A stretch of 64,000 nucleotides of DNA from an uncultured Coprobacillus sp. (GTDB lineage: Bacteria > Bacillota_I > Bacilli_A > ML615J-28 > CAG-698). Below the pieces are notes generated by a model, which saw only the letters and a program-made list of their open reading frames with translations, was not told the origin of the DNA and searched no databases. Shown one piece after another: positions 7,397 through 27,364 of the stretch. Location: contig CAYLPZ010000003.1 of the NCBI GenBank assembly GCA_964385755.1, forward strand, positions 65,052 to 129,051. Reading direction: 5' to 3'. Made by a program: the position numbers and the translations under genes. Each line of letters opens with the position of its first letter. The first letter of the stretch is position 1.

Positions 7397-8314
7397 TTAT
7401 GAACCTAAATATGCTGCCTTTACTTTTTCATTATTTAATAGTTCTTCACCAGTTCCTGATAATACAACATTTCCAGTTTCAAGAACATAGGCACGATCAC
7501 AAATACTTAAAGCCATTTTAGCATTCTGTTCAACAAGTAAAATTGTTGTGCCATGAGCATTTAAATCTTTTATTATGTCAAAGATTTCTGTTACATAGAT
7601 TGGTGATAATCCCATTGAAGGTTCATCCATTAGTAATATTTTTGGTTTGCTCATCATTGCTCTTGCCATTGCTAGCATTTGTTGTTCACCACCAGAAAGT
7701 GTTCCAGCTTTTTGCTTTCTTCTTTCCTTTAGTCTTGGGAATCGTTCAAATACTTCCTCTAAATCTTCTTTGATCTTAGTTTGATTATGACGTCGATATG
7801 CTCCCATTTCTAGGTTTTCTTGAACTGTAAGTTCTGCAAACACTTGTCTTCCCTCAGGAACATGAGCTACACCATATAAAATACCATCATATGGTTTAAT
7901 TTTAAATAAATCAGCTTTAACATATTTATTATACTTTTTACGAAGTTTTTCCACTTTTGCTTTAGCAAAGTAGCTTTCTTTACCAAATACTTCTTTAGCA
8001 ATATCTTCATTTGAACTAATTTTGTCAAATGTTTTTTCGCTAGTTTGATATACAGCAAGTAATTTATCTGCCATCTTGGTTCCCGCAAATCTATTAAGGG
8101 TACGTTTATCTTTTAGCATTGATAAATCAAGTTGTGCACTACTTCCAGACTCAACCTTAATTAATCCAGAAAGAGAACGAAGCAAAGTTGTTTTACCAGC
8201 ACCATTTGCGCCAATCAAGACAACTATTTCACCTTGTTTAACATCAATATTTATGCCTTTTAAAGCTTTAATATTGCCATTATATGTTACTTTTAAATCG
8301 CGTACTTCTAACAT
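7397..8314 (-). CDS. livF: branched-chain amino acid ABC transporter ATP-binding protein LivF, with ~70-aa lysine-rich insertion
   Basis: Walker A GANGAGKTT. The LivF-like N-terminus reads MLEVRDLKVTYNGNIKALKGINIDV, with signature LSGGEQQMLAMARA and Walker B LLMDEPSMGL. An extra segment (approx nt 7940-8160) is absent from canonical ~235-aa LivF. Confidence 0.8.
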   Translation of the reverse strand: MLEVRDLKVTYNGNIKALKGINIDVKQGEIVVLIGANGAGKTTLLRSLSGLIKVESGSSAQLDLSMLKDKRTLNRFAGTKMADKLLAVYQTSEKTFDKISSNEDIAKEVFGKESYFAKAKVEKLRKKYNKYVKADLFKIKPYDGILYGVAHVPEGRQVFAELTVQENLEMGAYRRHNQTKIKEDLEEVFERFPRLKERRKQKAGTLSGGEQQMLAMARAMMSKPKILLMDEPSMGLSPIYVTEIFDIIKDLNAHGTTILLVEQNAKMALSICDRAYVLETGNVVLSGTGEELLNNEKVKAAYLGS

Positions 8315-8316
8315 AT

Positions 8317-9102
8317 TTATTCTCCTAAGTATGCGGCAATTACTTCTTTATTATTTCTAATTTCTTCAGGAACACCACTAGCAATTATTTTTCCGAAGCT
8401 TAGTACTGTAATCCATTCACATACACCCATTACTAATTTCATATCATGTTCAATCAATAGTATTGTTGCATTAAATTTTTTACGAAGGATATCAAATGTT
8501 TCCATTAGTTCCTGTGTTTCTGTTGGATTCATACCAGCAGCTGGTTCATCTAAAAGTAATACTTTTGGATTAGTAGCCATAGCACGCGCAATTTCTAAGC
8601 ACCTTTGTTTACCATAAGGTAAATTTTGAGCTTGCTCATTAGCATATTTATCAAGTTTAAAGATTGATAATATTTCTAATGCTTTTGCTTTATACATTTC
8701 ATATTCTTTATAAAAACTTGGAAGACGTAATGTAGAAGCAATTAATCCAGTTTTCATATCTTTATTAAATGCAACCATAACATTATCAAGAACTGATAGT
8801 TGTTTAAATAAACGAATATTTTGGAATGTTCGAGCTAGACCTAATTTTACCATTTGATGAGGTTTAATATTCACAGGGACAACTTTATCTTCAATATAAA
8901 TTGAACCAGATGTAGGAGTATATACTCCAGTTAAAAGGTTAAAGCAAGTTGTTTTACCAGCACCATTTGGACCAATAAGTCCAACTATTTCACCAGGATA
9001 AACTTTAATAGAAAAGTCATCAACAGCTTTTAAACCACTAAAACTAATTGATATATGTTCAACATTTAAAATTGGTTTTTGGTTTTCGCCTCTATTTTCC
9101 AT
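8317..9102 (-). CDS. livG: branched-chain amino acid ABC transporter ATP-binding protein LivG
   Basis: Walker [10 protein letters not shown], then [17 protein letters not shown] and [11 protein letters not shown]. The gene is adjacent to livF. Confidence 0.8.
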
Positions 9103-10171
9103 CAGTTGTCACCTCCTCTTTTACTTTTTTCTTAAAGATTTTTCTAAAGAGGTTTTTTATCTTCTTAATAAGATTTTTACAGTTTTGTTTAAAGTTCAAA
9201 ATGAACTTAGTCATACTAAATTCATGAATTCCAAATAACCCTTTAGGCGCAAAGATCATTATTAGAATTAATGCTAAAGAATAAATAATTAAACGTAAAG
9301 CACCAAAATTAGTTAATTTAATTGTTAAATAACTAAGAACTGTTGCTGAGAGGATGCTTCCAGTGTATGAGCCTAAACCACCAAATACTACCATAACTAA
9401 GTAATCAATTGATTTACTTAAGCCAAAGTTTTCAGGGTAAATTGAACCAATTGTATGAGCAAACATTGCACCACCAATTCCCGCAAATACAGCAGATACG
9501 GTGAATGCTAATACTTTATATCTTGTTACTGAAATACCAGACGCTTCTGATGCAATTTCATCTTCTCTTATTGATAAAATAGCTTTACCATGGCGAGAAG
9601 TCATAAATGAATATACGATAGCAACACAAATTACAGTTGTTACTAATGCAATTAATATACCCGCATAACCACCTAAATCTTTATTTGATGCACTTAATAC
9701 TTTTGGAAGACCTGATAAACCTTGTGAACCTTTTGTGATAGGTAAGTTCTTGATTAAACACCTAATAGCCTCACCAAAGCCAAGTGTTACAATTGCTAAG
9801 TAGTCACCTCTTAGTCTTAAACATGGAATACCAACGATTAATCCAAAGATTGCGCAAACTGCTGCAGATAATAAAATACATAGTAGAAATTGAACATACA
9901 TATTTTCCATTGGAAAATATTTGCAAAATAGACCTGAGATATATGCACCTATTGCCATAAATCCTGCTTGACCTAAAACTATTTCACCCATTGATCCAGC
10001 TGAAATGTTTAGTGATACTGCAACTACAATATTTATACAAATTGTGATCACTGTTGTTGTAAATGAACGACTAATAGACTTTGTTATTAAAGCTACAACT
10101 GCAATTAGTAAAATTGATGAAATCAAATTTACTAACATCGGAAAGCGTTTATGATTAATTAATTTTTTCAT
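9092..10171 (-). CDS. livM: branched-chain amino acid ABC transporter permease LivM (with charged C-terminal tail)
   Basis: Polytopic permease. It lies between the livH-like and livG genes, and its C-terminal KKIKNLFRKIFKKKVKEE tail overlaps the livG start. Confidence 0.7.
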   Translation of the reverse strand: MKKLINHKRFPMLVNLISSILLIAVVALITKSISRSFTTTVITICINIVVAVSLNISAGSMGEIVLGQAGFMAIGAYISGLFCKYFPMENMYVQFLLCILLSAAVCAIFGLIVGIPCLRLRGDYLAIVTLGFGEAIRCLIKNLPITKGSQGLSGLPKVLSASNKDLGGYAGILIALVTTVICVAIVYSFMTSRHGKAILSIREDEIASEASGISVTRYKVLAFTVSAVFAGIGGAMFAHTIGSIYPENFGLSKSIDYLVMVVFGGLGSYTGSILSATVLSYLTIKLTNFGALRLIIYSLALILIMIFAPKGLFGIHEFSMTKFILNFKQNCKNLIKKIKNLFRKIFKKKVKEEVTTDGK

Positions 10172-11058
10172 TATACTTTCTCCCTTCTATTTTTACCTAG
10201 AATTCCAGATGGTTTAACAAGTAATATAAAGATCAAAATTGAGAATGTAATAACATCAACCCAAGCAGATCCAATATAAGGGATACATAAATGTTCTATA
10301 ACACCTATTATTAAGCCGCCAAGAACAGCTCCAGGGATTAATCCAATTCCACCAAGAACAGCAGCAACGAAGGCCTTAATACCTAAAGTTGAGCCAAGCA
10401 TATTATTAAATCCTTGGTAATAGATACAATACATTACAGAAGCTAATCCCGCAAGCATAGCTCCAATGATAAATGTTGTAGAAATTGTTTTATCAACATT
10501 AATTCCCATCAAAACTGCCGCATCAGGATTTTCACTTACAGCTTTCATTGCTTTTCCTGGTCTTGTCTTATTTACAAATAACGTTAACACTGTAGTACTT
10601 ATTATTAGTAATACTATCATAAGTATTAATTTCCATTGAATTGTTAAATCACCTAATGTAAATGATCCTAAATCAGGAATTATTTCAGGTGACTCTTTAT
10701 CACGACTACTAAATGCAAGTGCAAATAAATTCTCAAGTAAGAATGATACTGCAATTGCAGTAATTAGAGCTGTGATTCTTTTTGATTTTCTTAAAGGTTT
10801 ATAAGCTAATTTTTCAGTTAGAAAACCTAATAATCCCGTTAATACCATTGTTATTAAGACACTAAAGACGGGTGGAATACCTAGTCCTAATAGAATATTT
10901 GTAGCACCTAATGCTACGAAGCAGCCTACCATTATAAAATCGCCATGGGCAAAGTTTATTAGTTTTATAATTCCATAAACCATTGTATATCCAAGTGCGA
11001 CAAGTGCGTAGATACTACCAGACGATAAACCATTTATTAAGTATTCAAAAAATTCCAT
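10171..11058 (-). CDS. livH: branched-chain amino acid ABC transporter permease LivH
   Basis: The N-terminus MEFFEYLINGLSSGSIYALVALGYTMVYG is the classic LivH start. The protein is polytopic. Confidence 0.75.
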   Translation of the reverse strand: MEFFEYLINGLSSGSIYALVALGYTMVYGIIKLINFAHGDFIMVGCFVALGATNILLGLGIPPVFSVLITMVLTGLLGFLTEKLAYKPLRKSKRITALITAIAVSFLLENLFALAFSSRDKESPEIIPDLGSFTLGDLTIQWKLILMIVLLIISTTVLTLFVNKTRPGKAMKAVSENPDAAVLMGINVDKTISTTFIIGAMLAGLASVMYCIYYQGFNNMLGSTLGIKAFVAAVLGGIGLIPGAVLGGLIIGVIEHLCIPYIGSAWVDVITFSILIFILLVKPSGILGKNRREKV

Positions 11059-11126
11059 AAGCTTATTCTCCTAACACACTTATTTTTCTCCGTAAGGATA
11101 TTTTATATTTAAATATTATATAATAA

Positions 11127-12308
11127 TTATAGTTCTTTGTATAAAGATAATGATCCATCAGCGTGGAATTCAAGAACTGGAGCACTCTTTTGTGGGTTGT
11201 TCTTTTCATCAAATGTTAATGCACCAGTACATCCTTCAAATGAAATACCTTTTAATGCGGCAACAACATCAGCATTATCAGTTGAATTTGCTTTTTCGAT
11301 TGCGGCAACTGCAAGATATAATGCATCATATGCTAAAGCTGCAAACATTGAAGGAACTTCTTCATGACCATTCTTATATAATTCTGTTCCAGCTCTATTA
11401 AATTCTGCTTTATAATCAGCATAGAATGATTTAACTTGTTCTTTTTCTGAACCAGAAAAAATACCAGTTACATAGAAGCAGTTTTCAAAATATTCAGGGT
11501 GTGCATAATTAGCAGTAGCACCATCCCATCCATCACCGCCAAAGAACATACAATCAACACCAGCTTCACGGCAAGCAGCAACAGCAGTTCTAATTTGATC
11601 AGTATAGTCAGGCATTACAATTGCATCTGGAGCAGCATTTTTAATTTCTGTAACAAATGAGCTCATAGAGTTCTTTAATGCATCTAAATTATCATAATTT
11701 AATAATTTTGCAACTTCAACTTTTCCTTCAACTTCACTAACAAATGCATCACAAATACCAGAAGAGTATGCGTCAGCAGTGTTCTTTAAAACAACAACTT
11801 TTTTAACGCCTTTATCTAAAGCAAGCTTAGAAAGAATTGTACCTTGATAAGAATCAATAAAGCAAGTACGGAATACAGATCCTTTTAATTTACCATCATC
11901 ATAAGTTACAACATCACCTGTTGCAGTTGGAGTGATCATTGGAACACCATCTTCAGCAGCTGCAGAAGAAACTGCTATAGTAGTATTAGTGATAACTGGT
12001 CCAACGATAATATCAACATCTTCAGCTATTGATTGATATTGGTTAACAGCTGTAGTAGGATCAGCTGTATCATCTTTTATAACTAATTCTATTTGTTTTT
12101 TAGCGCCATCAACATTAACACCACCAGCTTCATTGATTTGTTTAGTAGCTAGTTTAACACCATTAACTACTTCTTCAGCATAGAATTGTGCTGCAACACT
12201 TAAGTTACCGATAACACCTATTTTAACAGTATCATTTTCTTTTTCACCACAAGCAATTAGGCCAAATCCTAAAGCCAACATCATAACTACGAATAGAAAT
12301 TTTTTCAT
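11127..12308 (-). CDS. livJ: branched-chain amino acid ABC transporter substrate-binding lipoprotein (LivJ/LivK family)
   Basis: Lipoprotein signal MKKFLFVVMMLALGFGLIACGE with a periplasmic binding-protein type I fold, first gene of the liv cluster. The RBS AAAGGAGAAAAG lies upstream. Confidence 0.7.
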   Translation of the reverse strand: MKKFLFVVMMLALGFGLIACGEKENDTVKIGVIGNLSVAAQFYAEEVVNGVKLATKQINEAGGVNVDGAKKQIELVIKDDTADPTTAVNQYQSIAEDVDIIVGPVITNTTIAVSSAAAEDGVPMITPTATGDVVTYDDGKLKGSVFRTCFIDSYQGTILSKLALDKGVKKVVVLKNTADAYSSGICDAFVSEVEGKVEVAKLLNYDNLDALKNSMSSFVTEIKNAAPDAIVMPDYTDQIRTAVAACREAGVDCMFFGGDGWDGATANYAHPEYFENCFYVTGIFSGSEKEQVKSFYADYKAEFNRAGTELYKNGHEEVPSMFAALAYDALYLAVAAIEKANSTDNADVVAALKGISFEGCTGALTFDEKNNPQKSAPVLEFHADGSLSLYKEL

Positions 12309-12364: not shown

Positions 12365-12406
12365 AAAGAAACAAAAAAGTTCTTGTCTATCAAAAAAAAC
12401 AAGAAC
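12365..12406 (-). terminator. intrinsic terminator of the liv leader (stem GTTCTTG/CAAGAAC, followed by UUUUUUGUUUCUUUUU on minus strand)
   Basis: The hairpin and T-run were read directly. It sits ~60 nt upstream of the livJ start, the usual position of a riboswitch or attenuator terminator. Confidence 0.6.
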
Positions 12407-15639: not shown

Positions 15640-15677
15640 GTCTAAAAAAGTAAAAAAAGTAAGGAAAAACCTTACTT
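15640..15677 (-). terminator. intrinsic terminator after uracil permease (AAGTAAGG-uuuuu-CCTTACTT + U-run)
   Basis: The hairpin overlaps the stop codon, with UUUUUACUUUUUU downstream on the minus strand. Confidence 0.6.
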
Positions 15678-17080
15678 TATAAATCTAGATTATATTCATC
15701 CTCACTTGATTCAGTATTATCTTTTTTTGTTTCTTTTACTTCCTTTGGTAAAATGAAATTCAGAATAATTCCAAAAATCATCGCAAGAGCCATACCAGAG
15801 AATTTACCAAAATCTCCAATTTTTATTACTGCACCACCAAGGCCAATTACAAGCATTACTGATACAATAATCATATTTCTTGTAGAAGTCAAATCAACTT
15901 TAGCATCAAAGATAGTTTTTAATCCATTTGAAGCAATAAAGCCATATAGAATTAAACATACACCACCCATTACTGCACTTGGAATTGTAGCAATTAATGT
16001 TGTAAAAAGATTACAAAATGATAGTAAGATTGCAACTACAGCAGCTCCACCAGTTACCCAAACTGATCCAATTTTAGTCATACCAACAACACTTGTGTTT
16101 TCTCCATAACTAGTGTTAGCAGGTCCACCAATAGCCCCTGCAAACATTGTTGCAATTCCATCACCAAGTAATGTACGGTGAAGTCCAGGTTCTGTCATGT
16201 AATCATAACCAGTAATTTTGCCTAAAACTTTATGATCCCCAATATGTTCAGATATTGTTACAAAAGCTAGTGGAATGCATCCTACTGCCGCAACCAAACT
16301 AAATTTTACCATGCTTACGTTAGCAAATAAATTAGCATCCTTCCATCCTAAAATCTTAAATGATGGTAATGTAAACCATTGTGAAGGAGTTTTTACAACT
16401 TCAATAAATGCTTCTAATGTATTTTGTTGTTGTCCATTCACAAATACAGGAGTATCTGATACCCAATTTAAAGCTAATGCAACTAAGTAACCTCCTAAGA
16501 TACCTAGAAGAAATGGAATTATTTTCATAAAGCCTTTACCTTTTAAGGCAAATAATGCAACAAATAACATAGTAGAAATTGCTATCACAATATTACGCCA
16601 ATCTCCACCCTCAACTAAATCAATTTGTCCTACTGCTGTTGAAGCTAAACCTAGACCAATGATAATAATCATAGGTCCAACAACTACTGGTGGAAGTAGT
16701 TTATGAAGCCATTTAACTCCCACGAACTTTATTATTAAAGCAACAATTACATAAATTATACCTACAATTAAAATACCAGTAAAAGCAGCTCCATAGTTTG
16801 GTCCATCGGAACTACCAGCTAACTGCATTGCGGAATTGATATATGCTATATAAGCAAAACTAGAACCTAAATAAATAGGTACACGTGCTTTTGTACATAA
16901 AATGTAAATTAATGTTCCAACACCAGAAGCAAATAATGCAACTGAAATATCAAGACCTGTAAGCATTGGAACTAAAACTGTAGCACTAAACATCGCGAAT
17001 ACATGTTGGAACGATAAGAAAAACCAATCACGTTTCTTTCTTGGTTTTTCATTGTAATCAAGAATTAAATTGTTGTTCAT
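15677..17080 (-). CDS. pyrP: uracil permease (NCS2 family, UraA/PyrP-like)
   Basis: LSFQHVFAMFSATVLVPMLTGLDISVALFASGVGTLIYILCTKARVPIYLGSSFAYI closely parallels the UraA/PyrP N-terminus. The preferred start is MNNNLILDY at 17080, with a perfect RBS GGAGGTATAT; the track start is 17125. Confidence 0.75.
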   Translation of the reverse strand: MNNNLILDYNEKPRKKRDWFFLSFQHVFAMFSATVLVPMLTGLDISVALFASGVGTLIYILCTKARVPIYLGSSFAYIAYINSAMQLAGSSDGPNYGAAFTGILIVGIIYVIVALIIKFVGVKWLHKLLPPVVVGPMIIIIGLGLASTAVGQIDLVEGGDWRNIVIAISTMLFVALFALKGKGFMKIIPFLLGILGGYLVALALNWVSDTPVFVNGQQQNTLEAFIEVVKTPSQWFTLPSFKILGWKDANLFANVSMVKFSLVAAVGCIPLAFVTISEHIGDHKVLGKITGYDYMTEPGLHRTLLGDGIATMFAGAIGGPANTSYGENTSVVGMTKIGSVWVTGGAAVVAILLSFCNLFTTLIATIPSAVMGGVCLILYGFIASNGLKTIFDAKVDLTSTRNMIIVSVMLVIGLGGAVIKIGDFGKFSGMALAMIFGIILNFILPKEVKETKKDNTESSEDEYNLDL

Positions 17081-17106
17081 ATATACCTCCTTATTACATA
17101 AAAAAT

Positions 17107-17130
17107 AAGAGTTGAAAAAATTCAACTCTT
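17107..17130 (-). terminator. attenuator terminator in pyrP leader (AAGAGUUGAA-uuuu-UUCAACUCUU + UAUUUUUU) abutting the pyrP RBS
   Basis: A 10-bp perfect stem and U-run end about 14 nt before the GGAGG RBS. Confidence 0.6.
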
Positions 17131-17221
17131 AAAAATTATTGTCCTTATGAAATGAAAAAATAGTGATACTTCTTTTTGCAAGTTTATTAGTATTTTTAGT
17201 TTCTACTTTTACTGCTTTCAT
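17129..17221 (-). CDS. 30-codon leader ORF (MKAVKVETKNTNKLAKRSITIFSFHKDNNF) whose stop codon overlaps the 5' arm of the attenuator terminator
   Basis: ATG at 17221 with RBS AAGAAGG 7 nt upstream. The in-frame UAA falls at 17129-17131 inside the terminator 5' arm, and the U-rich codons AUU UUU UCA UUU precede it. Confidence 0.4.
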   Translation of the reverse strand: MKAVKVETKNTNKLAKRSITIFSFHKDNNF

Positions 17222-17252
17222 AAGAAGTACCTTCTTTCTTTATTTCCGATAT

Positions 17253-17281
17253 ATTATACATCATACTAATAAATAATGCAA
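17253..17281 (-). promoter_or_regulatory. sigma-A-type promoter for pyrP leader (-35 TTGCAT, 17 nt, -10 TATAAT)
   Basis: The reverse complement of 17253-17281 reads TTGCAT-tatttattagtatgatg-TATAAT. Confidence 0.55.
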
Positions 17282-17290
17282 TACTTTTAT

Positions 17291-18211
17291 TTATTTTTTG
17301 TAAATTATTGTGCCCTTTTGTAAATTTATAGCTTCACTTGCATTTACAATTGATGTAATAATTGCTTTAGCAGAATTATTATTTTTAACAAAATTAAGTG
17401 CTGCAGTAACTTTTGGAAGCATTGATCCAGGTTTAAAGTGTCCTTCTTCCACATATTTTTCTAAAGTATTAACATCAACTTCCGTTAATGCTCTTTCATC
17501 TTCTTTGCCATAATTTAAAAATACATTATCAACTGCCGTTAGTATAATTAACATATCCGCATGTAGTGACGTGGCTAATACTTCTGATACTAAATCTTTA
17601 TCAATAACAGCATCAACACCAATATATCCACTTTCACCTTCGATTACAGGTATGCCTCCACCTCCACAACATATTACAATATTATTTGTACTTATTATTG
17701 TATCAATTATTTTTTCTTCTAAGACCTTTAGTGGTTTTGGGCTTGCAACTACTCTACGATAGCCCCTCTTGTTCGCTTCTTCTTTTGTTGGATATAAAGC
17801 CTTTTCTGCTTCTTCTTTTGATAGATATAAACCTACTGGTTTAGTAGGATTACTAAAAGCTTGATCATTTTTATCTACTACTACTTGAGTTATTATAGAT
17901 GCAACTTTTTTACCAATATTATGCTTATTTAATACATTTATTAAAGCGTTTTGTAAATGATATCCTATATATCCTTGTGATAATGCACCACACTCACAAA
18001 ACGGCATTTCAGATACTTTTTCATTTTCTTTATGAGCAAGCAAAAAAGCGTTATTAATTAAGCCAACTTGTGGACCATTTCCATGTGTAAAGATTACTTC
18101 GTTATTTCTTAATAACGGCAACATTTTTTCAACCGTTAGAATTGCCATTTCTTTTTGCTTTTGAGGAGTTTCTCCTAAAGCATTACCACCTAATGCAACT
18201 ACGATTCTCAT
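17291..18211 (-). CDS. arcC: carbamate kinase
   Basis: [12 protein letters not shown]...GNGPQVG...CGGGGIPV are the carbamate-kinase hallmarks. It is the last gene of the arc cluster. Confidence 0.85.
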   Translation of the reverse strand: MRIVVALGGNALGETPQKQKEMAILTVEKMLPLLRNNEVIFTHGNGPQVGLINNAFLLAHKENEKVSEMPFCECGALSQGYIGYHLQNALINVLNKHNIGKKVASIITQVVVDKNDQAFSNPTKPVGLYLSKEEAEKALYPTKEEANKRGYRRVVASPKPLKVLEEKIIDTIISTNNIVICCGGGGIPVIEGESGYIGVDAVIDKDLVSEVLATSLHADMLIILTAVDNVFLNYGKEDERALTEVDVNTLEKYVEEGHFKPGSMLPKVTAALNFVKNNNSAKAIITSIVNASEAINLQKGTIIYKK

Positions 18212-19200
18212 TAGTCCACCATTGTCGCATAGATTACTGCTTTAATCGTGTGTAATCTGTTTTCTGCTTCATCAAAGACAACTGACTGCTCTCCTTCAAA
18301 TACTTCTTCAGTCACTTCTAGTCCATCAAGACCAAATTTTTGATACACTTCCATACCAACTTTAGTCTCTAGGTTATGAAATGATGGAAGGCAATGTAAG
18401 AATATTGCATCACTTTTTGCTTTTTTCATTAATTCTTTATTCACTTGATATGGTTTTAATAATTCAATTCTTTCTTTCCAAACACTATCAGGCTCACCCA
18501 TTGAAACCCAAACATCAGTAACAACAATGTCTGCTCCTTTGATATTTTCATCAATATCTTCGCTCAAAATGACTTGTCCTTTAGTTTCTTTACAGATTTC
18601 TATACATTTATCAACTAATGAACTTTCTGGCCATAATTCTTTTGGAGCTAATCCAACGAAAGTCATTCCCATTTTAGCACAACCTATCATTAATGAATTT
18701 CCCATATTATAACGACAATCGCCTAAATAAGCCATTTTCAAGCCTTTTAATGTTCCTTTATGTTCTCTGATTGTAAGCATGTCCGCAAGTATTTGCGTTG
18801 GATGATATTTTTCTGTTAATCCATTCCAAACAGGAACTCCTGAGTATTTTTCTAAAATCTCAACAGTTTCTTGTTTAAATCCTCGGTATTCAATTCCGTC
18901 ATATATTCTTCCTAATACTCTAGCAGTATCTTTGATTGATTCTTTTTTTCCCATTTGACTTCCAGTAGGTCCTAAATAAGTTGCATGCATTCCTAAATCA
19001 TATGCAGCAACCTCAAATGAACATCGTGTTCTTGTAGAATCCTTTTCAAATAATAAAACTATATTTTTACCTTCGAGTACCTTTGTGGGAATACCATTTT
19101 TCTTTTTTTCTTTTAATTCACTTGCTAAATCTAATAAATATGTTATTTCTTCAGGTGTAAAATCTAAAAGAGTTAATAAACTACGATTCTTTAATTTCAT
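18211..19200 (-). CDS. arcB: ornithine carbamoyltransferase (catabolic)
   Basis: The STRTR and HCLP motifs are present ([21 protein letters not shown]), in arc context. Confidence 0.85.
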
Positions 19201-19235
19201 ATTGTTCCTTTCTATTTTAACATTAATTATATTAT

Positions 19236-20465
19236 CTATTTGTCTAATTTCTCTCTTTCAAGAGGCATACACATACATCTTGGGCCACCACGACCTCGTG
19301 ATAATTCACTAGATGGAATAGTATGAACCTTTATACCATATGATTTTAAAAGATCATTAGTAATGTTATTTCTTTCATATGTAATAACCTCACCCGGAGC
19401 AATCGCAATACAGTTGCTACCATCACTCCATTGTTCACGATCTGCAGAAACTTGATCTTTTCCACCACAAGGAATTAAAGTAATCTTTCGTTTTAAGATA
19501 CTACTTAGAATTTCTTCTAAACTTCCAGTTAGTTCAGTTGTTTTTAATAGTACATCACTAGTCTCATCTTTTTCAACACAAAACACTTTGAAACTATCAT
19601 AACATTCTTGATGCACAGTAAACTTATCGTAATCAATTTGTGTAAAAATTGTATCTAAATGCATAAAAGTTCTTTGCTTTGGAATAGACAAAACAATAAT
19701 TCTTTTAAGTTTTGATTTATATTCATAAAATAAGTTCTTTGCTAATTTTTCAATTGCTTCAGCAGAAGTACGTTCACTAACACCTATTATTAGTGTATCT
19801 TCATTCAATACTAGAATATCTCCACCTTCTATATTATATTTATATTCTCTATCGTAGAAGAATTTTGTTCCTTTGTATTCAGGATGATACATAAAAATAT
19901 ATTTACCATAAATTGTTTCACGACATCTAGTTTTTGAATACATTTTATTAAGAATGATTCCATCTTCAAATGTTACAAATGGATCTCTTGTAAAATATAA
20001 ATTTGGCATAGGATTAGTAATAAACTTATTATCTTTAACAAAATCTGAAAGTGATTTTTTTTGATAATTTGGAAGTTCACTTCTCTTAATCCCCGCCATA
20101 GTTTTAATAACTAAACTTTTTGTATCTTCAATTTTATTTAAATAATCACATACAGCCTTCTTTAGATGTTCATTTGATATTTCAGCCTCATTTACATATT
20201 CAGAAATAAATTGTTCTCTAACATCCTTTGAACTATTTAGTGCTTCAGTTACTAAATCAACCAAATATACTACTTTTACATTTGCATCTCTAAATGTTTG
20301 TGCAAAAGCTCTATGTTCCTTTTTAGCTAGTGGAAGCCAAGGAATATCATCAAATAGTAATTCACCTAAATAAGCTGGTGTTAAATTATTTAATTCCTCT
20401 CCCGGTTCATGTAAAAGGACGGTTTTTAATCGTCCAATTTCAGAGTTTACGAATAATTTACTCAT
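19236..20465 (-). CDS. arcA: arginine deiminase
   Basis: [25 protein letters not shown] is the classic ADI N-terminus, with the C-terminal catalytic Cys region [12 protein letters not shown]. The preferred start is 20465 (RBS AAGGAG); the track start is 20489. Confidence 0.85.
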
Positions 20466-20478
20466 TATTTTCTCCTTC

Positions 20479-21045
20479 TTATGCGCCATCCCAGTGATTG
20501 TCGCAAGTGTTTTTTATCTTTTTTAAAGAATATTCTTTTTCCATATCATTAAGCATATCAATATCTTCTCCAGTTTTAAAAATATTATGCTTACTAGAAT
20601 ACTTTTTTTCTTTAATTTTTTTATCACTAGACTTATTTAAATCATATATAATCGAAGATATTTCATAACTACTTTTATTATCAATATCTAGCACAAAACA
20701 TTTTTTATTTTCATTAAAATCTAAAGACATACTCTTTTTTATTAATAAAACATTTAAGTAGTTATCGTTAAGAATAGTTTTCATTAAATCATATATTTTT
20801 TTACTTGTGATAATATTATATGCGATAACACTTTTTTCTTCATTTTTACGTTTTTCAATGTCAATAAACATTTTTTCTATACTTTTAAATAATTCATCTT
20901 CATTTATATCTTCATATGAATTTATTTTTAAATAATTATTAATTGATACTATTTCATATTTATAGTTATATAAGATATTAAGTATTCTTATAATATCAGA
21001 TTTATCAGATGAAACTAGGTTATTTATTAAAATTACTTTATTCAT
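20479..21045 (-). CDS. hypothetical protein (Asn/Lys-rich, no recognisable domain), immediately upstream of arcA
   Basis: 188-aa ORF. Its stop lies 14 nt before the arcA start. Confidence 0.4.
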   Translation of the reverse strand: MNKVILINNLVSSDKSDIIRILNILYNYKYEIVSINNYLKINSYEDINEDELFKSIEKMFIDIEKRKNEEKSVIAYNIITSKKIYDLMKTILNDNYLNVLLIKKSMSLDFNENKKCFVLDIDNKSSYEISSIIYDLNKSSDKKIKEKKYSSKHNIFKTGEDIDMLNDMEKEYSLKKIKNTCDNHWDGA

Positions 21046-21046
21046 A

Positions 21047-21571
21047 TTATCTAAATGGGTAATTTAAATATGTAAAGAGCATAGCTAGAAATAAAAACAA
21101 AAAGGCTAAAGTATTAATACTTAATTTAAGTAGAGTAGTTTTAATATCTTTTCTTCTTCTAACATACATAACCATCAATAAAACAACAAATAATGATACT
21201 GAAATAGCAAAGAAAATGGTAGCAAAAGTTGTAGTTAATCCCTTATTGAAAGGTATTAAATCTGTCATATAGTTTGCATACCATATTCCTATAATCATAA
21301 ATAATATTCCGACAGGAATGGCAATTAACATTTGTTTTTCAAACCAAGTAACGCTAATATCCTTCTTCACATCTAAATATTTATTAACATTTTTTAATCC
21401 ACTAGATAATGCACAAAGTACAACACCAAAAACAAAAAATGCATTCTTAATCATAATCATTGCAAACGCTGCAGCAAGAACATAAAAAAATAATGGCAAG
21501 AAATTTAAATAAACTAGATATGCTGGCATTTGTATGTTTTTATTTTTTTTGTTTCTATTTCCCATAATCAA
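21047..21571 (-). CDS. small membrane protein (4-5 TM), unknown function
   Basis: Hydrophobic helices. It overlaps or abuts the next ORF, so it is probably co-transcribed with the arc genes. Confidence 0.4.
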   Translation of the reverse strand: MIMGNRNKKNKNIQMPAYLVYLNFLPLFFYVLAAAFAMIMIKNAFFVFGVVLCALSSGLKNVNKYLDVKKDISVTWFEKQMLIAIPVGILFMIIGIWYANYMTDLIPFNKGLTTTFATIFFAISVSLFVVLLMVMYVRRRKDIKTTLLKLSINTLAFLFLFLAMLFTYLNYPFR

Positions 21572-21661
21572 ACCTCTTATAATGTTTCTTTTTTACTATT
21601 ATACACAAAATCATCAAAAAATTAAACTATTTATTGCTTTTTATATTTTTATAAATATTAA

Positions 21662-21700
21662 AATGGTGAACCTCAAAGGAATTCACCACTTGTTTTTTTC
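21662..21700. terminator. bidirectional hairpin terminator (TGGTGAA-n11-TTCACCA, T-runs on both sides)
   Basis: Read directly from the sequence, downstream of the rhodanese gene on the minus strand. Confidence 0.5.
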
Positions 21701-21740
21701 TTTGAATATAATTTATCATTAATACATAGAAAACAATTAT

Positions 21741-22145
21741 CTATTTACCATATTCAAGTTTGCCATTATAATCGAGAATTCCACCAATCTCAATTATATT
21801 TGTATATCCAAGTTTTACAAGTTTACTAGATGCTTGTTTGCTGCGAGAACCACTACGACAATATACATAAATATTTTGTCTTTTATTTGGTAATAATGAA
21901 ATCTCAAAAGTTCCAATTGTTTCATTTGGAATGTTTATAGCACCAGGGATATGTCCTGCGATAAACTCATCTTCCCTGCGAACATCTACCAAAATGTATC
22001 CTTTATCTTCTTGCATTCTTGCAAGAGCTTCAGACATAGAAATAGATTCATATGTGTTCTGATTTTTATCAGAATCTGGTTTTCTACATCCTAACCCAAA
22101 AAGCAACAAAAATAATATTAATGGTAATAATTTTATTGGCATCAT
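21741..22145 (-). CDS. rhodanese-domain sulfurtransferase lipoprotein
   Basis: Lipobox LFGLGC. The rhodanese active-site loop is YCRSGSRS, and the flanking motif ILVDVRREDEFIAGHIPGAINIP is present. Confidence 0.75.
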   Translation of the reverse strand: MMPIKLLPLILFLLLFGLGCRKPDSDKNQNTYESISMSEALARMQEDKGYILVDVRREDEFIAGHIPGAINIPNETIGTFEISLLPNKRQNIYVYCRSGSRSKQASSKLVKLGYTNIIEIGGILDYNGKLEYGK

Positions 22146-22172
22146 CTAACTCCTAAATTAATGCTAAAATAA

Positions 22173-22481
22173 TTATTTTAATAATTCCTCTAATATAGTT
22201 TTTGGCATAGCTCCTACTTTTTGTTTTACAATCTTTCTATCTTTTATTACTACAAACATAGGAATACTTGAAACTTGGAAATAACTAGCAAGCTCTGGTT
22301 CATCATCAACATTTACTTTTCCGATAATTGCTTTTCCTTGATATTCATTTGCAAGTTCCTCAACTACAGGTGACATCATACGGCATGGTCCACACCAAGG
22401 AGCCCAAAAGTCAATTAGAATTGGTAACTCGCTTTTTAAAGCTTCCTCAAAGTTTTCTTTTGTAATTTTTAGTTCAGACAT
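22173..22481 (-). CDS. trxA: thioredoxin
   Basis: WCGPC active site. The preferred start is MSELKIT at 22481 with RBS AAAGGAG. The track ORF begins upstream at 22568, and I consider that hydrophobic extension unlikely to be translated. Confidence 0.8.
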   Translation of the reverse strand: MSELKITKENFEEALKSELPILIDFWAPWCGPCRMMSPVVEELANEYQGKAIIGKVNVDDEPELASYFQVSSIPMFVVIKDRKIVKQKVGAMPKTILEELLK

Positions 22482-22810
22482 ATATTCCACTCCTTTATTA
22501 AATTTTTTTATCATCAAAATAAATCCTTTTATGAAAAGCATCACTATTATAATAAACATATAATACATTATTATAGATAATATATGATTCTTCTAGCTAT
22601 TCATGTAAAATAATAAGATACACCATTATTTTTATATCTTTATTATTATTATATTATTTATTACTATTTTTTTCAAGAATCGTGACATATATACAAATTA
22701 AAAAGTGGTGAAACAATTTTATATACAAACGAAGCACTATCAACAGGCTTTAATATTTTTCTTAGTACTGGTGGGAATGCTAAAATTCAGTCGTATTACT
22801 GAGATGTTTC

Positions 22811-23161
22811 TTATTCCACCGTGTTAATAACCAAAAACGGCTTACGCCCGAATTTGTCCACAAGGGGACGGTAGAAAATAATAAGCAACGTTACCGGATA
22901 GGAAATAAAACCTATGGCGGAAAAGAGCGATAATCCCTCGCCGTATTCCATACCCATATTTTTTACGAAGAATTCCGTAACTATATTCGCCTGAAACTGA
23001 ATGGATATAGTAGACGCTATTTCGTCCGTTATGAAGATGAGCGACAAAATCATAAACAAGTAAGTCAGATAAAACTTGTTGCTTCTTGCGCCCAACTGTT
23101 TTTCGCGGCGGATAAGTTCTTTGGCTTCGCGCGCCTGTAATCGTTCAACGTTTTTTGCCAA
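22811..23161 (-). pseudogene. N-terminal fragment of an MFS transporter, truncated at island boundary
   Basis: The 116-aa ORF ends with PLVDKFGRKPFLV, the MFS loop 2-3 signature. The reading frame stops exactly at the left compositional boundary. Confidence 0.45.
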
Positions 23162-23199
23162 GCGGTAAGCTTTCTCCCGCTTTTTGCTTTTTGTTTATC

Positions 23200-24258
23200 T
23201 TATTTGTGGCGCATACGATACTCAAATTCATCAACGCGTTCTCCCGTCTTTTTCATTTCGTCGAGAGTTTTACGTTGGTTTTCAAGATTGCGTTCATTCT
23301 GCTTTGCAAGTTCTGCGTTGTGTGAAGCCTGTTGCTTTGCTCTGAACTCAGCATCCTCGTGCATTTTCTTTGTTGTCCTGTTAAGGTCGTCGAGCTTTTG
23401 GTTTATTGAATTGCGTGTTTCAATATTTATCATATTTTGAATGTTGATCTGCTGCTGTGTTTTGTCAGCTATTATACATTCCTTAGCTATAGAGTTGAAA
23501 TCATCCTCAGAGGTGGCTGTCATTCCAAGCTTTATAAAATAGTCTTGCTGATCGTAAGGAGTGTTTTCAAAAAGAAATAATACTCGCTCTCCAACTATAG
23601 CCTTTGCCTCCTCGGCGACATCACTAAGTGTGCTATCCCTTCTGACCTCGGCATCAGCATATGCTTTCTCGAATGTTAACAACAGCTCAGAAAAGTAATT
23701 CTTTGTAATGCTCTGTGCCTTGGAAACAAGCGCAGAAAGCACAGCTTCGTCAGGCTTGTTCTTCTTAATAGCTATAATAACGTCAAGAAGTCCCAAACCT
23801 ATTCCGACCATGGTGATCTTCGGCATCGAGAGTGCCAATCCGGTGAATAACGCAGACGCTGCCAAAAGACCGAGCATTAAAACGCCAAAAAGTTTAAGAA
23901 AGCTTCCTGTAAGAGGCTTATTTACGCCCTTTTTAAGCTCATCCCTTACATTGCTCTGAATTTCGAGCAATTTAGACTCATACGCCGATGTTTCAGCGCG
24001 CATTTGTTCTGTATATTTAATATTTAACAAATCACATCCGTACTTAACGTTATCGCCAAGGCGGGATGCTTTGCCATCGTATTGATCCAATAGATATCTT
24101 ATTTGCTCGACTATATTGCGGTCGTTAAGCCCATCTGCGATCGCGCGCTTGCTTTTTAGACTTTCGATATATTGATACGCCTTGGTAAAAGAGCGCTCTA
24201 TATTTTTTTTGTCCTCACGGTACTTAGTGAGGTACTGCATAGCTTTGGCATAATTCAT
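23200..24258 (-). CDS. hypothetical protein with central pair of TM helices and coiled-coil C-terminus (island cargo)
   Basis: 352-aa ORF. Hydrophobic stretches LKLFGVLMLGLLAASALFTGLAL and ITMVGIGLGLLDVIIAI. The C-terminus is Gln/Glu/Lys-rich. Confidence 0.4.
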   Translation of the reverse strand: MNYAKAMQYLTKYREDKKNIERSFTKAYQYIESLKSKRAIADGLNDRNIVEQIRYLLDQYDGKASRLGDNVKYGCDLLNIKYTEQMRAETSAYESKLLEIQSNVRDELKKGVNKPLTGSFLKLFGVLMLGLLAASALFTGLALSMPKITMVGIGLGLLDVIIAIKKNKPDEAVLSALVSKAQSITKNYFSELLLTFEKAYADAEVRRDSTLSDVAEEAKAIVGERVLFLFENTPYDQQDYFIKLGMTATSEDDFNSIAKECIIADKTQQQINIQNMINIETRNSINQKLDDLNRTTKKMHEDAEFRAKQQASHNAELAKQNERNLENQRKTLDEMKKTGERVDEFEYRMRHK

Positions 24259-24501
24259 TTTATTTTCCTCCGAGTAATATATAGTTGTACCATAAGCATA
24301 CCACGCCTTTTGATAAAATGCAATATGATATACGAATAAATATACTGAAAATTTTATTTTGTAAAGGTAAAATGCCCTATCAGTTGGATAAGTGAAAATA
24401 TAAGAAACAAAAAAAGCCCGAACCTTTTTCCAATGGTAAAAAAGTTCAAGCCATTTGCGTTTGGTGACCCTGTGCCCAAGAAAGTCTAACCTATAAAATG
24501 G

Positions 24502-25350
24502 TTAAATATAATAAATAGTCAAATAGTAGTTATGCCAAAGCCCAAAAGCAAATTCGGTATAAGTCGAAGATGAGGTATTACCTAAATTTATCTCACTCAA
24601 CGACGGGCGCGTCAAATAATAAGATGCTGAATTATAATTTTGAAATATGTGCCACATTACCACCAATTTGCCTTTTCCCGTAGCAACGTGAGCTTTATAT
24701 TGATAAGCCGCCAACTGATTTTCGGTTATGCCTGTTGTGTAATACCTTTCAGCAGAATTTTCGCTATCAAAAAGATAAAAATACTCGCAATCGACAAAAT
24801 CGGAACTCAATAAATTTAAAAGAGCAGTATTGTTGTCAACAGTAATTTTTTCTTCGCTGACACTTTCAATATCCGTAAGCTCGATAACCTTATAAATTAC
24901 GCCGACTTCGGTATCAAACGCCCCTTTCTCGGTAGCGATAGCGGTTATTTTTTCGTTAAGTTTAGCGTTTGTAGAAAGTACATAACGATTATTATCGACA
25001 TTTATTCCGTTCAATGAAATGCCGTAAGAGTTTGCGCCTTGTCGTATCGTAAACGAAGTGTTGTTGCCAGGCGCAGGCGGTTCATTACCTAAATTAGTAA
25101 GTTTGGCGGTAAGTACCAAATTAACTATTTCGTCTATATTGCTCTTATCTTCAATAGTAAACTGAAAGCCGTCCTTTTTTCCGTTATCGAAATCCACGTC
25201 TATTTTATCGCCACCCGAAAGCATATCCGAATAAAATTCAATATCGCTTATTGCGTTTATTTGATTAGCCTTATCGGTACAGCCAGCAAACGCAAATAAT
25301 GCTATACAAGTAATAGCCGATAATAAAAACGCTATAACAGTTTTTTTCAT
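24502..25350 (-). CDS. lipoprotein of unknown function (island cargo)
   Basis: Signal plus lipobox (ALFAFAGCTDK). No recognisable domain. Confidence 0.4.
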   Translation of the reverse strand: MKKTVIAFLLSAITCIALFAFAGCTDKANQINAISDIEFYSDMLSGGDKIDVDFDNGKKDGFQFTIEDKSNIDEIVNLVLTAKLTNLGNEPPAPGNNTSFTIRQGANSYGISLNGINVDNNRYVLSTNAKLNEKITAIATEKGAFDTEVGVIYKVIELTDIESVSEEKITVDNNTALLNLLSSDFVDCEYFYLFDSENSAERYYTTGITENQLAAYQYKAHVATGKGKLVVMWHIFQNYNSASYYLTRPSLSEINLGNTSSSTYTEFAFGLWHNYYLTIYYI

Positions 25351-25815: not shown

Positions 25816-26104
25816 ACGCACAAAAAAGTGCGAGTGCAATTTAATATTGGAACTGCGTCAATAGGAAATCTATTGTGCAGCTAAAACAGCAGACCAGAGG
25901 TTAAGTTAAGGAGCAAAGTAGCGATTAAGCGAAAGCCGGTTCACCCCCAACAAAGAAAAGGTGCAGAGTTGCGTTTTGATAAGAGAGAAGATAGCACACT
26001 CTTATTCTATTAAGGGAATATAATATTCTCTTAATTTTAACGGGCGATGTACAAAGTTTTATGAGATTAAGTTCTCGTAAGATTTTGTACATCGCCCTTT
26101 TTTC
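25816..26104 (+). ncRNA. candidate ~290-nt non-coding RNA bounded by promoter and a strong intrinsic terminator
   Basis: No convincing ORF. The terminator at the end is GGGCGATGTACAAA-n28-TTTGTACATCGCCC followed by a T-run, and it sits upstream of the Rep gene. Confidence 0.3.
26042..26104 (+). terminator. intrinsic terminator (14-bp stem, long loop, T-run CTTTTTTCG)
   Basis: Read directly from the sequence. Confidence 0.55.
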
Positions 26105-26280: not shown

Positions 26281-27165
26281 ATGAACTTAATCGGCGCAAA
26301 GGTTTACTTTGACGGCAGACATTGGATAGCTATTCGCCATACCGAACGAAGTTCCAAACGGCGAAGAAAGAGCATTAAGGCGCAGGACGACCCCACGGTT
26401 GAACAGTTTGAAAAGTCGTTTAACAAGACAACAAAGGGTAGAAATTCGAAGAAAAAAGAAAGCCTTTTGAAAGAGTTTTTACCCCACTTTGACAGCGAAA
26501 GCGAAGCTACGGAATTTGTAGAAACGCAGTTTGAACGGCTTAACCGCAACCGCATTGAAAGATTTAAAAGGTTAAAGCGAAAGGCGTATTTACAGCAATG
26601 GCACTACTTTTGCACTTTTACCTATGCGGACGGCAAGCAGACCGAAGAGAGTTTCAGAAAGCAGTTAATGAACTGTTTATACCATTTGGCTACACGAAAG
26701 GGTTGGAGATATATCGGAGCTTGGGAACGTGGTGAAGATAACGGAAGATTACACTTTCACGCTTTGGTCTATATACCGCCCGACGGTATGGTTGGAGAGT
26801 TTGAAGAACGTAACGATTTCAGCTTTAAAGCTCATAAACGGCAGGTTACTAATCAAAATACGTTTTTCAACGAGCGGTTTGGGCGTAACGATTTCGACAA
26901 GATTTCACATCAAATCGAAGTCGAGAACAGCGTTTACTATATGCTCAAATACATAACCAAGAATGACGAAAAGGTCGTTTATTCAAGGGGGTTAAAGAGC
27001 TATATCGTAGCGGACATTTTGGAAGAAGATATACTCTGCCCTTATGGTGATGACGAGAATGAATACAAATTTATACTTTCAGACGATTTCACCTGCATTA
27101 CGGACGGCGAGATTTTGGGAAAGGTCAGTCCCGAAGTCATAGAAAAAATGCCGAAAAGTAACTGA
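26281..27165 (+). CDS. rep: rolling-circle replication initiator (HUH endonuclease superfamily Rep)
   Basis: Motif I FCTFTYAD, motif II HFHALVY (HUH) and motif III VYYMLKYITKN (YxxKYxxK, the two-tyrosine type seen in phiX174 gpA-like and plasmid Reps). The basic N-terminal region is preceded by RBS AAAGGGGGTG. Confidence 0.6.
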   Translation: MNLIGAKVYFDGRHWIAIRHTERSSKRRRKSIKAQDDPTVEQFEKSFNKTTKGRNSKKKESLLKEFLPHFDSESEATEFVETQFERLNRNRIERFKRLKRKAYLQQWHYFCTFTYADGKQTEESFRKQLMNCLYHLATRKGWRYIGAWERGEDNGRLHFHALVYIPPDGMVGEFEERNDFSFKAHKRQVTNQNTFFNERFGRNDFDKISHQIEVENSVYYMLKYITKNDEKVVYSRGLKSYIVADILEEDILCPYGDDENEYKFILSDDFTCITDGEILGKVSPEVIEKMPKSN

Positions 27166-27364
27166 CCAAGAGTTTTTGTCTATCGACTTGCAGAGCGTAA
27201 ACGAAAACCCACGCTGTTGCAAGGGTAAAATGCACTACTTTCGTAGCCCTTGCATCAGCGCAGGAATAAGCCATAAAAAACGCTAAACAATGGCTTTCCG
27301 TTTGTTCGCCCCTTGTCGAAAGACAAAAGTTAAAAATCTATTTTAAAAGGAGTTTAAATTAAGA

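Follow-up and report, generated by a model that had tools for sequence, protein, structure and literature searches.

The 64,000-nucleotide stretch analysed here (the window), from contig CAYLPZ010000003.1 of an uncultured Coprobacillus sp., carries on its minus strand a gene for a nucleobase permease that is separated by a spacer of 210 nt from arcC, the last gene of an upstream arginine deiminase cluster, and is followed by yaaA. Within this spacer a short upstream open reading frame (uORF) with its own Shine-Dalgarno (SD) sequence runs into an intrinsic terminator, and it is this leader that we describe as a putative attenuator of the permease gene. The following parts can be recognized in the order of transcription:

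17253 to 17281, minus strand: promoter-like site, with the -35 hexamer TTGCAT at 17281-17276, a spacer of 17 nt and the -10 hexamer TATAAT at 17258-17253.
17222 to 17246, minus strand: 5' arm of a leader helix predicted by folding (GAAAU, AAGAAA, GGUACUUCUU), which overlaps part of the uORF SD sequence and reaches the AUG.
17230 to 17235, minus strand: SD sequence AGAAGG of the uORF, 8 nt ahead of the ATG at 17221.
17129 to 17221, minus strand: the uORF, 30 codons plus UAA, with the product MKAVKVETKNTNKLAKRSITIFSFHKDNNF.
17149 to 17174, minus strand: 3' arm of the predicted helix, or anti-SD segment, comprising uORF codons 16-24 (AAGAAGUAUC, UUUUUU, AUUUC).
17131 to 17161, minus strand: U-rich tract in the 3' half of the uORF, with U6 at 17160-17155 and U5 at 17135-17131 as candidate pause sites for RNA polymerase.
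17106 to 17131, minus strand: intrinsic terminator hairpin (UAAGAGUUGAA / UUUU / UUCAACUCUUA) with a perfect stem of 11 bp, a loop of 4 nt and a stability of -12.4 kcal/mol.
17100 to 17105, minus strand: T6 tract of the terminator, read from the sequence.
17086 to 17092, minus strand: SD sequence AAGGAGG of the permease gene, read from the sequence.
15677 to 17080, minus strand: the candidate regulated gene, starting with ATG at 17080 and encoding a nucleobase:cation symporter of the NCS2/NAT family, UraA/PyrP-like branch, 467 amino acids.
15656 to 15678, minus strand: terminator at the 3' end of the permease gene, found by hairpin scan.

The stop codon of the uORF (UAA, 17131-17129) provides the first three bases of the terminator hairpin, and the permease ATG lies 26 nt past the hairpin. 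As the permease gene has its own 3' terminator, it should form a single-gene unit. The overall layout, consisting of uORF, U-rich tract, terminator, a stop codon within the 5' arm and a ribosome-binding site for the permease, had been put forward in a preliminary description of the same DNA and is present in full on the minus strand, with some corrections in detail. The promoter, described there as matching the consensus, has TATAAT as its -10 element but agrees with TTGACA at only three of six positions in the -35 region, which is why it is absent from the list of a consensus scan. It begins 10 nt past the arcC stop codon, and the combination TTGCAA-17-TATAAT is kept in the relatives L001 and L081 despite a diverged spacer. 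The uORF of 30 codons (17221-17129) and its SD sequence AGAAGG were found as described, although the latter is fair rather than strong, and the terminator stem is indeed perfect but comprises 11 instead of 10 bp. Two features treated below were not part of that description, i.e. the helix over the SD sequence and AUG of the uORF and the location of the terminator in the path of read-through from arcC.

Leaders were surveyed at 171 loci with homologous permeases, collected in genome and metagenome scans and in a search of 5.8 billion proteins; these loci are designated by L and a number. The closest relative of the window is L171 with 99% identity, followed after a gap by permease homologues of about 71% identity from metagenome-assembled genomes labelled as Bacilli, Anaeroplasma, Mollicutes, Izemoplasmatales and Erysipelotrichaceae. 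Where identity is 54% or more, an intrinsic terminator precedes the start codon by 25-45 nt in nearly all homologues, and five classes can be distinguished by what lies upstream of this terminator: (i) an SD-bearing uORF of 28-45 codons with its stop codon at or inside the hairpin; (ii) an operon arrangement with a full-length gene for an AzgA-like purine permease, the stop codon of which precedes the hairpin by 2-14 nt; (iii) a purine riboswitch; (iv) a PyrR site; and (v) structured leaders in which no element is recognized. About 15 lineages, the peptides of which are unrelated, belong to class (i) (the window with L171, L001/81, L005, L006, L007, L008, L017, L022, L094, L162/166, L168/170, L052, L032/60/112, L145/147, L156/157/159 and L149). 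The gene that follows is a homologous permease except in L149, where it is upp-permease. In nine of these lineages the position of the stop codon, counted from the hairpin's first base, is -1 to +3, and in L022, L008, L094 and L032 the open reading frame extends into the hairpin, in the case of L022 all the way through it. The specificity of this arrangement was gauged on 1.1 Mb of non-redundant flanking sequence from the same loci, in which none of 48 terminators of other genes is preceded by such a uORF, as compared to 27 of 56 permease leaders. About 13 of these 27 are spurious reading frames over streptococcal PyrR sites; the automatically detected "uORFs" of the streptococcal loci (MSSREV...) and of L099 overlap PyrR sites and were discarded.

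What is kept among related leaders is the open frame. L168 and L170 differ by an indel of a single nucleotide in the uORF that shifts the frame and changes the C-terminal part of the peptide completely, and still the reading frame reaches the terminator. In the 3' half of the same two leaders nucleotide conservation is far above that of synonymous third positions in the permease gene (0.59 identical). Of the changes in the uORF between L162 and L166, five are non-synonymous and two synonymous. Six nucleotides of the leader are changed in L171 as compared to the window, with the reading frame kept and a terminator stem of 10 bp retained after deletion of one nucleotide. The comparison with relatives that the preliminary description had called for thus gives a divided answer: the layout of uORF and hairpin recurs in about 15 lineages and, as far as sequence conservation can tell, frame and RNA are conserved, while the peptide sequence is not. 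The idea that the uORF might be the relic of the C-terminus of an upstream permease is not supported, as the upstream permease gene of L006 is intact and the uORF exists there separately.

The 170 nt that precede the window hairpin were subjected to 1000 dinucleotide shuffles, and a reading frame of at least 30 codons with SD sequence and ATG that ends at the hairpin arose in these with P=0.005. The same procedure yielded P<=0.015 for 15 of 17 related leaders tested. Among all terminator-like hairpins of the 64-kb window, the arrangement of SD sequence, uORF and stop codon at the hairpin occurs a single time. The Logan assemblies SRR6824180 and SRR23253271 contain contigs that are identical or 99% identical to the window locus, and in the two public gene-calling runs on these assemblies the 30-amino-acid reading frame was independently called as a gene. 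This last finding would also suit a very improbable alternative, according to which nothing at this site is regulatory, the hairpin merely terminates the arcABC operon and the reading frame arose by chance or is a real gene for a small protein. The genes in question are arranged in a cluster arcA-arcB-arcC:

19236 to 20489, minus strand: arcA, arginine deiminase pathway gene.
18211 to 19200, minus strand: arcB, arginine deiminase pathway gene.
17291 to 18211, minus strand: arcC, the last arc gene upstream of the permease leader.

No terminator is present between the arcC stop codon (17291) and the leader hairpin. As arcC lacks a terminator of its own, arc transcripts should enter the permease leader and end or be attenuated at the hairpin. 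Several related leader peptides are, moreover, hydrophobic and in this respect resemble small membrane proteins. However, genes upstream of the uORF-terminator module differ widely between loci, such that the module accompanies permease or upp genes and not arc. Its layout, for which the chance is about 0.5% per leader, is found in about 15 lineages; the peptides are unrelated and a frameshift is tolerated in one lineage; the last 12 residues of the window peptide are not hydrophobic (Kyte-Doolittle value -0.14); and a promoter-like site is situated between arcC and the uORF. As an observation on the arc cluster itself (17291-20489), we note that no gene for an arginine/ornithine antiporter adjoins it.

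Known regulatory RNAs offer no explanation for the leader. Searches against Rfam returned no family at gathering score in the whole window and nothing but noise at E<=10 in the intergenic region (16950-17400). This includes the PyrR attenuator (RF00515) with its conserved UCCAGAGAGGCU-like motif, for which the window gave no match at gathering score and 16950-17400 none at E<=10, in agreement with the preliminary description. The RF00515 model does detect the sites of L018 and L026; sites in L019, L029 and L093 were recognized by motif. The purine riboswitch model RF00167 matched neither the window nor the spacer. Likewise, an antiterminator is not apparent. In 17 leaders (the window and 16 related ones) a duplex between the upstream leader and the 5' arm of the terminator was never more stable than in shuffled sequences, and in the window the best such duplex amounts to -4.3 kcal/mol, compared to -4.8 +/- 1.5 kcal/mol after shuffling (p=0.57). 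This excludes switching of the trp/his, PyrR, T-box or riboswitch type, and the only route to read-through that can be seen is direct occlusion of the hairpin. A ribosome that masks the terminator as in pyrBI and pyrE of Escherichia coli, the mechanism favored in the preliminary description, is therefore well supported by the recurrence of the layout and by the lack of an antiterminator in all 17 leaders. A classical amino acid-responsive leader as for trp, his or phe was considered and rejected, because no codon run is common to the leader peptides and the antiterminator is missing. Many of the peptides end in Phe and several contain Asn-Asn. Specific sensing of either amino acid was nevertheless dismissed, as both features are within the expectation for U-rich or AT-rich composition, and such a signal would be physiologically senseless for a nucleobase permease gene.

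It is conceivable that a protein or small RNA acting in trans, or a small ligand, controls the terminator or the helix over the SD sequence and that the uORF is incidental or of secondary importance. We regard this as improbable. The leader is more structured than its shuffled counterparts (z = -2.8 to -3.1), and further sensors for the same gene appear to exist. Upstream of genes for homologous permeases (64-68% identity), the loci L002/L003 (~3800-3990), L004/L082 and L085-L089 (~2750-2990) have structured leaders with a terminator, in which neither a uORF nor a PyrR site nor a match to Rfam was found and which may represent one or more undescribed sensors. On the other hand, the roughly 15 uORF-bearing leaders have nothing in common but SD sequence, AUG, open frame, U-rich tail and terminator, there is no antiterminator that a ligand or protein could stabilize, Rfam gives no match and the open frame survives a frameshift as well as heavy divergence.

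A further common trait is the abundance of U ahead of the hairpin. The 30 nt preceding it have a T content of 0.58 in uORF leaders and of 0.38 in 48 other leader terminators (Mann-Whitney p=8e-5), and ordinary genes ending at terminators have 27% T in their last 30 nt (n=146). The corresponding value for the window is 0.50, as opposed to 0.33 +/- 0.10 in coding windows of the uORF-class loci. In the last 12 codons of the uORFs T amounts to 0.43/0.56/0.58 at codon positions 1/2/3, compared to 0.25/0.47/0.43 in hydropathy-matched windows of the downstream permease genes, only 0.9% of which reach the uORF level. Enrichment at all three codon positions points to a property of the RNA that goes beyond the coding of hydrophobic residues. 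A pyrimidine-rich 3' half could in principle serve as a loading site for Rho when the uORF is not translated, with Rho, and not the hairpin, bringing about conditional termination. Rho of Bacillus subtilis indeed targets pyrimidine-rich (C- and T-rich) nascent RNA that is laid bare by runaway transcription (PMC13323073), and the tail of the uORF is atypically rich in pyrimidines for a coding strand. Even so, we give this option hardly any credence: many Rho-terminated fragments have C-excess stretches of more than 150 nt (PMC13323073), whereas the tract here spans about 60 nt and is poor in C (0.13 across the uORF-class leaders), and every leader has a strong canonical intrinsic terminator.

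The second element that could set the timing is the helix at the beginning of the leader, in which the initiation region (17246-17222) is predicted to pair with the interior of the uORF (17174-17149). In the window, this duplex reaches -15.6 kcal/mol compared to -6.8 +/- 2.1 kcal/mol (p<0.002) in 500 mononucleotide shuffles of the uORF segment. The SD sequence (17230-17235) is partly paired in the predicted helix, the probability of it being unpaired amounting to 0.23. Pairing between SD and anti-SD segments is significant (p<0.03) in 10 of 20 leaders. In L006, GGAGAAAACGGU is paired with ACCGUUUUUCUC; L162 and L166 differ in the helix by a compensatory change of G-C to A-U, and a C-to-U change in L171 retains a pair as G.U. 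Such a helix would restrict translation of the leader to the time before the polymerase releases the anti-SD segment, and to one ribosome per transcript. As U6 lies inside the anti-SD segment, a pause there would hold the inner arm (17174-17165) within the polymerase and keep the SD sequence free.

The permease itself is assigned to the NCS2 superfamily by NCBIfam (308 bits, cutoff 292). Its best solved relative is UraA from E. coli (E=3e-73). Of the UraA residues for substrate binding and proton coupling (Glu241, His245 and Glu290), the two glutamates are kept. Some homologues in the clade of the window carry PyrR sites. Genes for permease-Upp fusions follow leaders of the uORF type in a sister clade (48-51% identity), in L032 (L032:3983-6013), L145 (L145:315-2345), L156 (L156:1338-3434) and L159 (L159:2449-4605). 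These are single open reading frames of 676-718 amino acids with an N-terminal UraA-like permease (~440 amino acids) and a complete C-terminal uracil phosphoribosyltransferase (283-293 bits with the upp equivalog model), and they would thus be fusions of a transporter with a salvage enzyme. The two genes are adjacent but in opposite orders in L052 (permease-upp) and L149 (upp-permease), again with a uORF-type leader upstream. To judge by these fusions and operons, the leader class is tied to uracil salvage. At other loci a purine riboswitch is involved, which was assigned to the guanine type by inspection on the basis of a C at the specificity position. It stands alone before the permease gene in L009 and L096, and in L006, L010, L088 and L092 it precedes an upstream purine-permease gene. 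In five loci it is placed just upstream of the uORF SD sequence and has its own terminator (L007:197-298, L017:3688-3790, L162:898-999, L166:899-1000, L170:866-967). The tandem arrangement suggests that a further input of a different kind comes from the uORF module, and for this signal UTP (uridine triphosphate) is plausible as the most economical candidate, alongside general translation status.

The latter is the essence of a reading that we consider unlikely but deserving of weight, in which the ribosome masks the terminator in the same manner and the signal is not UTP but general translation capacity or amino acid supply. Prompt initiation and elongation would then be required for transcription of the permease gene, and nucleotide-specific input would come from the guanine riboswitch at those loci where one is present in tandem. 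All evidence on architecture fits equally well, the five tandem loci show that another element can sense the nucleotide, and as a regulatory codon run is not shared, no particular amino acid is implicated. For a mere sensor of translation, however, U enrichment at three codon positions and U-runs by the anti-SD segment and the hairpin would be superfluous. Moreover, this type of leader was encountered only before UraA-like permease or upp genes, Upp fusions included, and before none of the 48 other terminators, which points to a pathway-specific signal.

At the level of sequence and comparison we regard the parts of the leader, their non-random conservation, the lack of an antiterminator, U-richness as a trait of the RNA, the helix over the SD sequence and the link to uracil salvage as established. 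From these we infer that ribosomes translate the uORF and occlude the hairpin, that the U-runs make the polymerase pause, and that the signal is UTP. In sum, the leader is probably a ribosome-operated transcription attenuator that works without an antiterminator and may be timed by UTP. We consider it likely that termination is relieved by translation of the uORF, while the identification of UTP or the pyrimidine nucleotide pool as the physiological signal comes close to an even call. Transcripts that originate from the TATAAT promoter or from arcC read-through would meet a strong terminator 26 nt before the permease start, and a ribosome on the 30-codon leader reading frame would be the sole agent able to block folding of the hairpin. 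As a ribosome that holds a stop codon in the A site protects roughly 12-15 nt beyond it, UAA (17131-17129) in this position would bring the entire 5' arm of 11 nt under cover. This could work only if the leading ribosome is directly behind the polymerase when hairpin and T-tract are formed. Two features might provide the timing. Under UTP scarcity, the polymerase would slow down at the U-runs (17160-17155 and 17135-17131), in the U-rich loop and in the T-tract. In addition, the helix over SD sequence and AUG would allow a ribosome to load only before the segment of codons 16-24 emerges, probably once per transcript. At low UTP the slow polymerase would give a ribosome the opportunity to load and catch up, the terminator would be masked and permease would be made. 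At high UTP the SD sequence would be sequestered, or the ribosome would lag behind, and transcription would be terminated.

Several points weigh against this model. Of 146 ordinary gene-end terminators in these genomes, 54% have a stop codon at a distance of no more than 14 nt, and by this measure the proximity of stop codon and hairpin in class (ii) is ordinary as well. The lineage of the window has just one near-identical relative (L171), too few for an analysis of lineage-specific covariation. The helix that sequesters the SD sequence is non-significant in about half of the leaders. U-richness results in part from complementarity to the purine-rich SD region and from hydrophobic peptides. 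The U-richness of class (ii) leaders was considered as support for UTP-dependent pausing and rejected, because stretches of the same genes matched for hydropathy are at least as rich in U; this class consequently gives no independent support. With regard to the substrate, the "uracil permease" of the preliminary description stands as a UraA-like NCS2 protein and is no more than a candidate as a specific assignment: the score with the uracil-permease equivalog model is 339 bits at a cutoff of 477, and His245 of UraA is replaced by Asp. The commonest sensor partner in the permease clade of the window is the guanine-type purine riboswitch, and substrate and signal could be purine-related or mixed. 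Finally, RNA polymerase of B. subtilis outruns the ribosomes (PMC13323073), so that coupled attenuation would be inefficient unless pauses are strong.

A more far-reaching and rather tentative proposal is that a widespread and so far undescribed class of ribosome-operated attenuators controls UraA-like permeases, Upp and their fusions in uncultured Mollicutes-like Bacilli and some Clostridia, where it would replace PyrR and comprise two kinetic checkpoints for UTP. At the first, a pause at a U-run would hold the anti-SD segment in the polymerase and one ribosome would load; at the second, another U-run pause would give this ribosome time to close the gap and occupy the terminator arm. If true, the serial guanine riboswitch in several lineages would amount to two-input control of nucleobase uptake by purines and pyrimidines, and transcription and translation would be tightly coupled in relatives of bacteria in which the polymerase normally outruns the ribosomes. 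The combination of riboswitch and uORF could then be viewed as a natural composite regulator in which sensing by RNA and sensing by a ribosome are placed one after the other ahead of a single permease gene, and the leader as a system of roughly 150 nt for probing transcription-translation coupling in uncultured lineages. Reading frames of 28-45 codons that are annotated as hypothetical proteins at such sites are probably regulatory leaders.

Two further observations from the survey are recorded here. Over 1200 nt of the permease gene L032 and L112 do not differ at all (100% identity), and yet there is a local hypervariable patch with nine differences within about 40 nt of the uORF. These affect codons 8-18, about 100-140 nt upstream of the start, and are located in and around a small hairpin with preserved stem (G.U to A-U). 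A recurrent operon consists of a guanine riboswitch, a gene for an AzgA-like purine permease, a strong internal terminator 2-14 nt after its stop codon and the gene for the UraA-like permease. It is present in L010-L016, L020, L021, L024, L088, L090-L092, L095, L097, L098, L101 and L128, with the riboswitch confirmed by Rfam in L010, L088 and L092 only.

Elsewhere in the window, a terminator-like hairpin with a stem of 10 bp and T6 (12379-12406, minus strand) lies 71 nt ahead of a gene for a substrate-binding protein (11127-12308) in an operon for an ABC transporter of the branched-chain amino acid type (7397-12308). It could be another leader attenuator; it has no Rfam match and no uORF by the criteria used. 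A hairpin with a perfect stem of 25 bp and a T-run (26042-26097) is situated just upstream of genes for a Rep protein (ORF2/G2P-like) and a large serine recombinase. Together with 26281-28846 it is probably part of an integrated mobile element, or of a small prophage or plasmid remnant. The reading frames at 20479-25350 gave no match in Pfam.

Control of pyrimidine genes in Bacillota is, according to textbooks, exerted by PyrR, and ribosome-coupled attenuation is regarded as mainly proteobacterial. The window leader resembles PyrR attenuators (RF00515) in that the target belongs to the pyrP-like permease family and that a terminator lies about 25-45 nt before the start, and differs from them by lacking PyrR motif, antiterminator and anti-antiterminator, with the ribosome instead of a protein as the proposed sensor. 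For trpL, too, a segment further downstream in the leader has been described to sequester the ribosome-binding site. A short leader reading frame followed by an intrinsic terminator is shared with the trp, his and phe attenuators and with the uORF motif uORFC-13-1 of Acholeplasma aroF, which documents that uORF attenuators exist in Mollicutes-related bacteria (PMC8632094). Unlike the trp, his and phe leaders, that of the window has neither a regulatory codon run nor an antiterminator hairpin, the target is a nucleobase permease, and stalling inside the uORF would favor termination instead of relieving it. The vmlR leader is a precedent from Bacillota for RNA polymerase pausing and transcription attenuation acting together (PMC9226507). 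There, a resistance factor is induced by drug-stalled ribosomes, while the window leader is associated with neither a resistance gene nor a recognizable arrest motif. Full-text searches of the literature brought up no attenuator from Bacillota in which a leader reading frame precedes uracil permease or upp; the nearest items were the aroF uORF motif (PMC8632094) and the vmlR leader (PMC9226507). The finding that in B. subtilis the polymerase outruns ribosomes and purine-richness is maintained in coding strands (PMC13323073) lends interest to a leader in a relative of Bacilli that is rich in pyrimidines and presumably dependent on the ribosome.

Functionally closest, by analogy and without homology, are rph-pyrE and pyrBI from E. 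coli. The rph-pyrE system, studied by Jensen, Bonekamp, Poulsen and colleagues and covered in a review by Turnbough and Switzer (2008), is UTP-sensitive and translation-coupled: a ribosome that finishes the upstream reading frame suppresses termination, with a U-rich region and without an antiterminator. In the window, too, a reading frame ends at an intrinsic terminator before a candidate pyrimidine gene, the RNA is U-rich and an antiterminator is lacking, and class (ii) relatives share with rph-pyrE that a purine-permease reading frame stops 2-14 nt before the terminator. The window differs in that a dedicated leader of 30 codons takes the place of an enzyme gene, a permease is the target, the host belongs to low-GC Mollicutes-like Bacilli and not to enterobacteria, sequence homology is absent and the SD sequence of the uORF would be sequestered by an internal helix. 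In pyrBI, a dedicated short leader reading frame is combined with a U-rich pause region, an intrinsic terminator and the ribosome as antiterminator. The window has a dedicated leader reading frame and an intrinsic terminator as well, with a U-rich region ahead of the hairpin as a candidate pause site and the ribosome as the proposed antiterminator, and the extension of the reading frame into or through the hairpin is shared with pyrBI by L022, L008, L094 and L032. The window reading frame itself stops at the start of the hairpin and does not run through it; phylum, target and leader sequence differ from pyrBI, and the helix between SD and anti-SD segments is an addition. Both pyrBI and upp are named in PMC6245113 as sites of reiterative transcription. 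Overall, the leader is set apart from both pyrE and pyrBI by phylum, by the permease or Upp as target, by a stop codon on the first base of the hairpin, by the SD-sequestering helix and by the tandem riboswitches. If the proposed mechanism holds true, the regulatory logic of pyrE and pyrBI has either arisen independently or persisted outside of the Proteobacteria.

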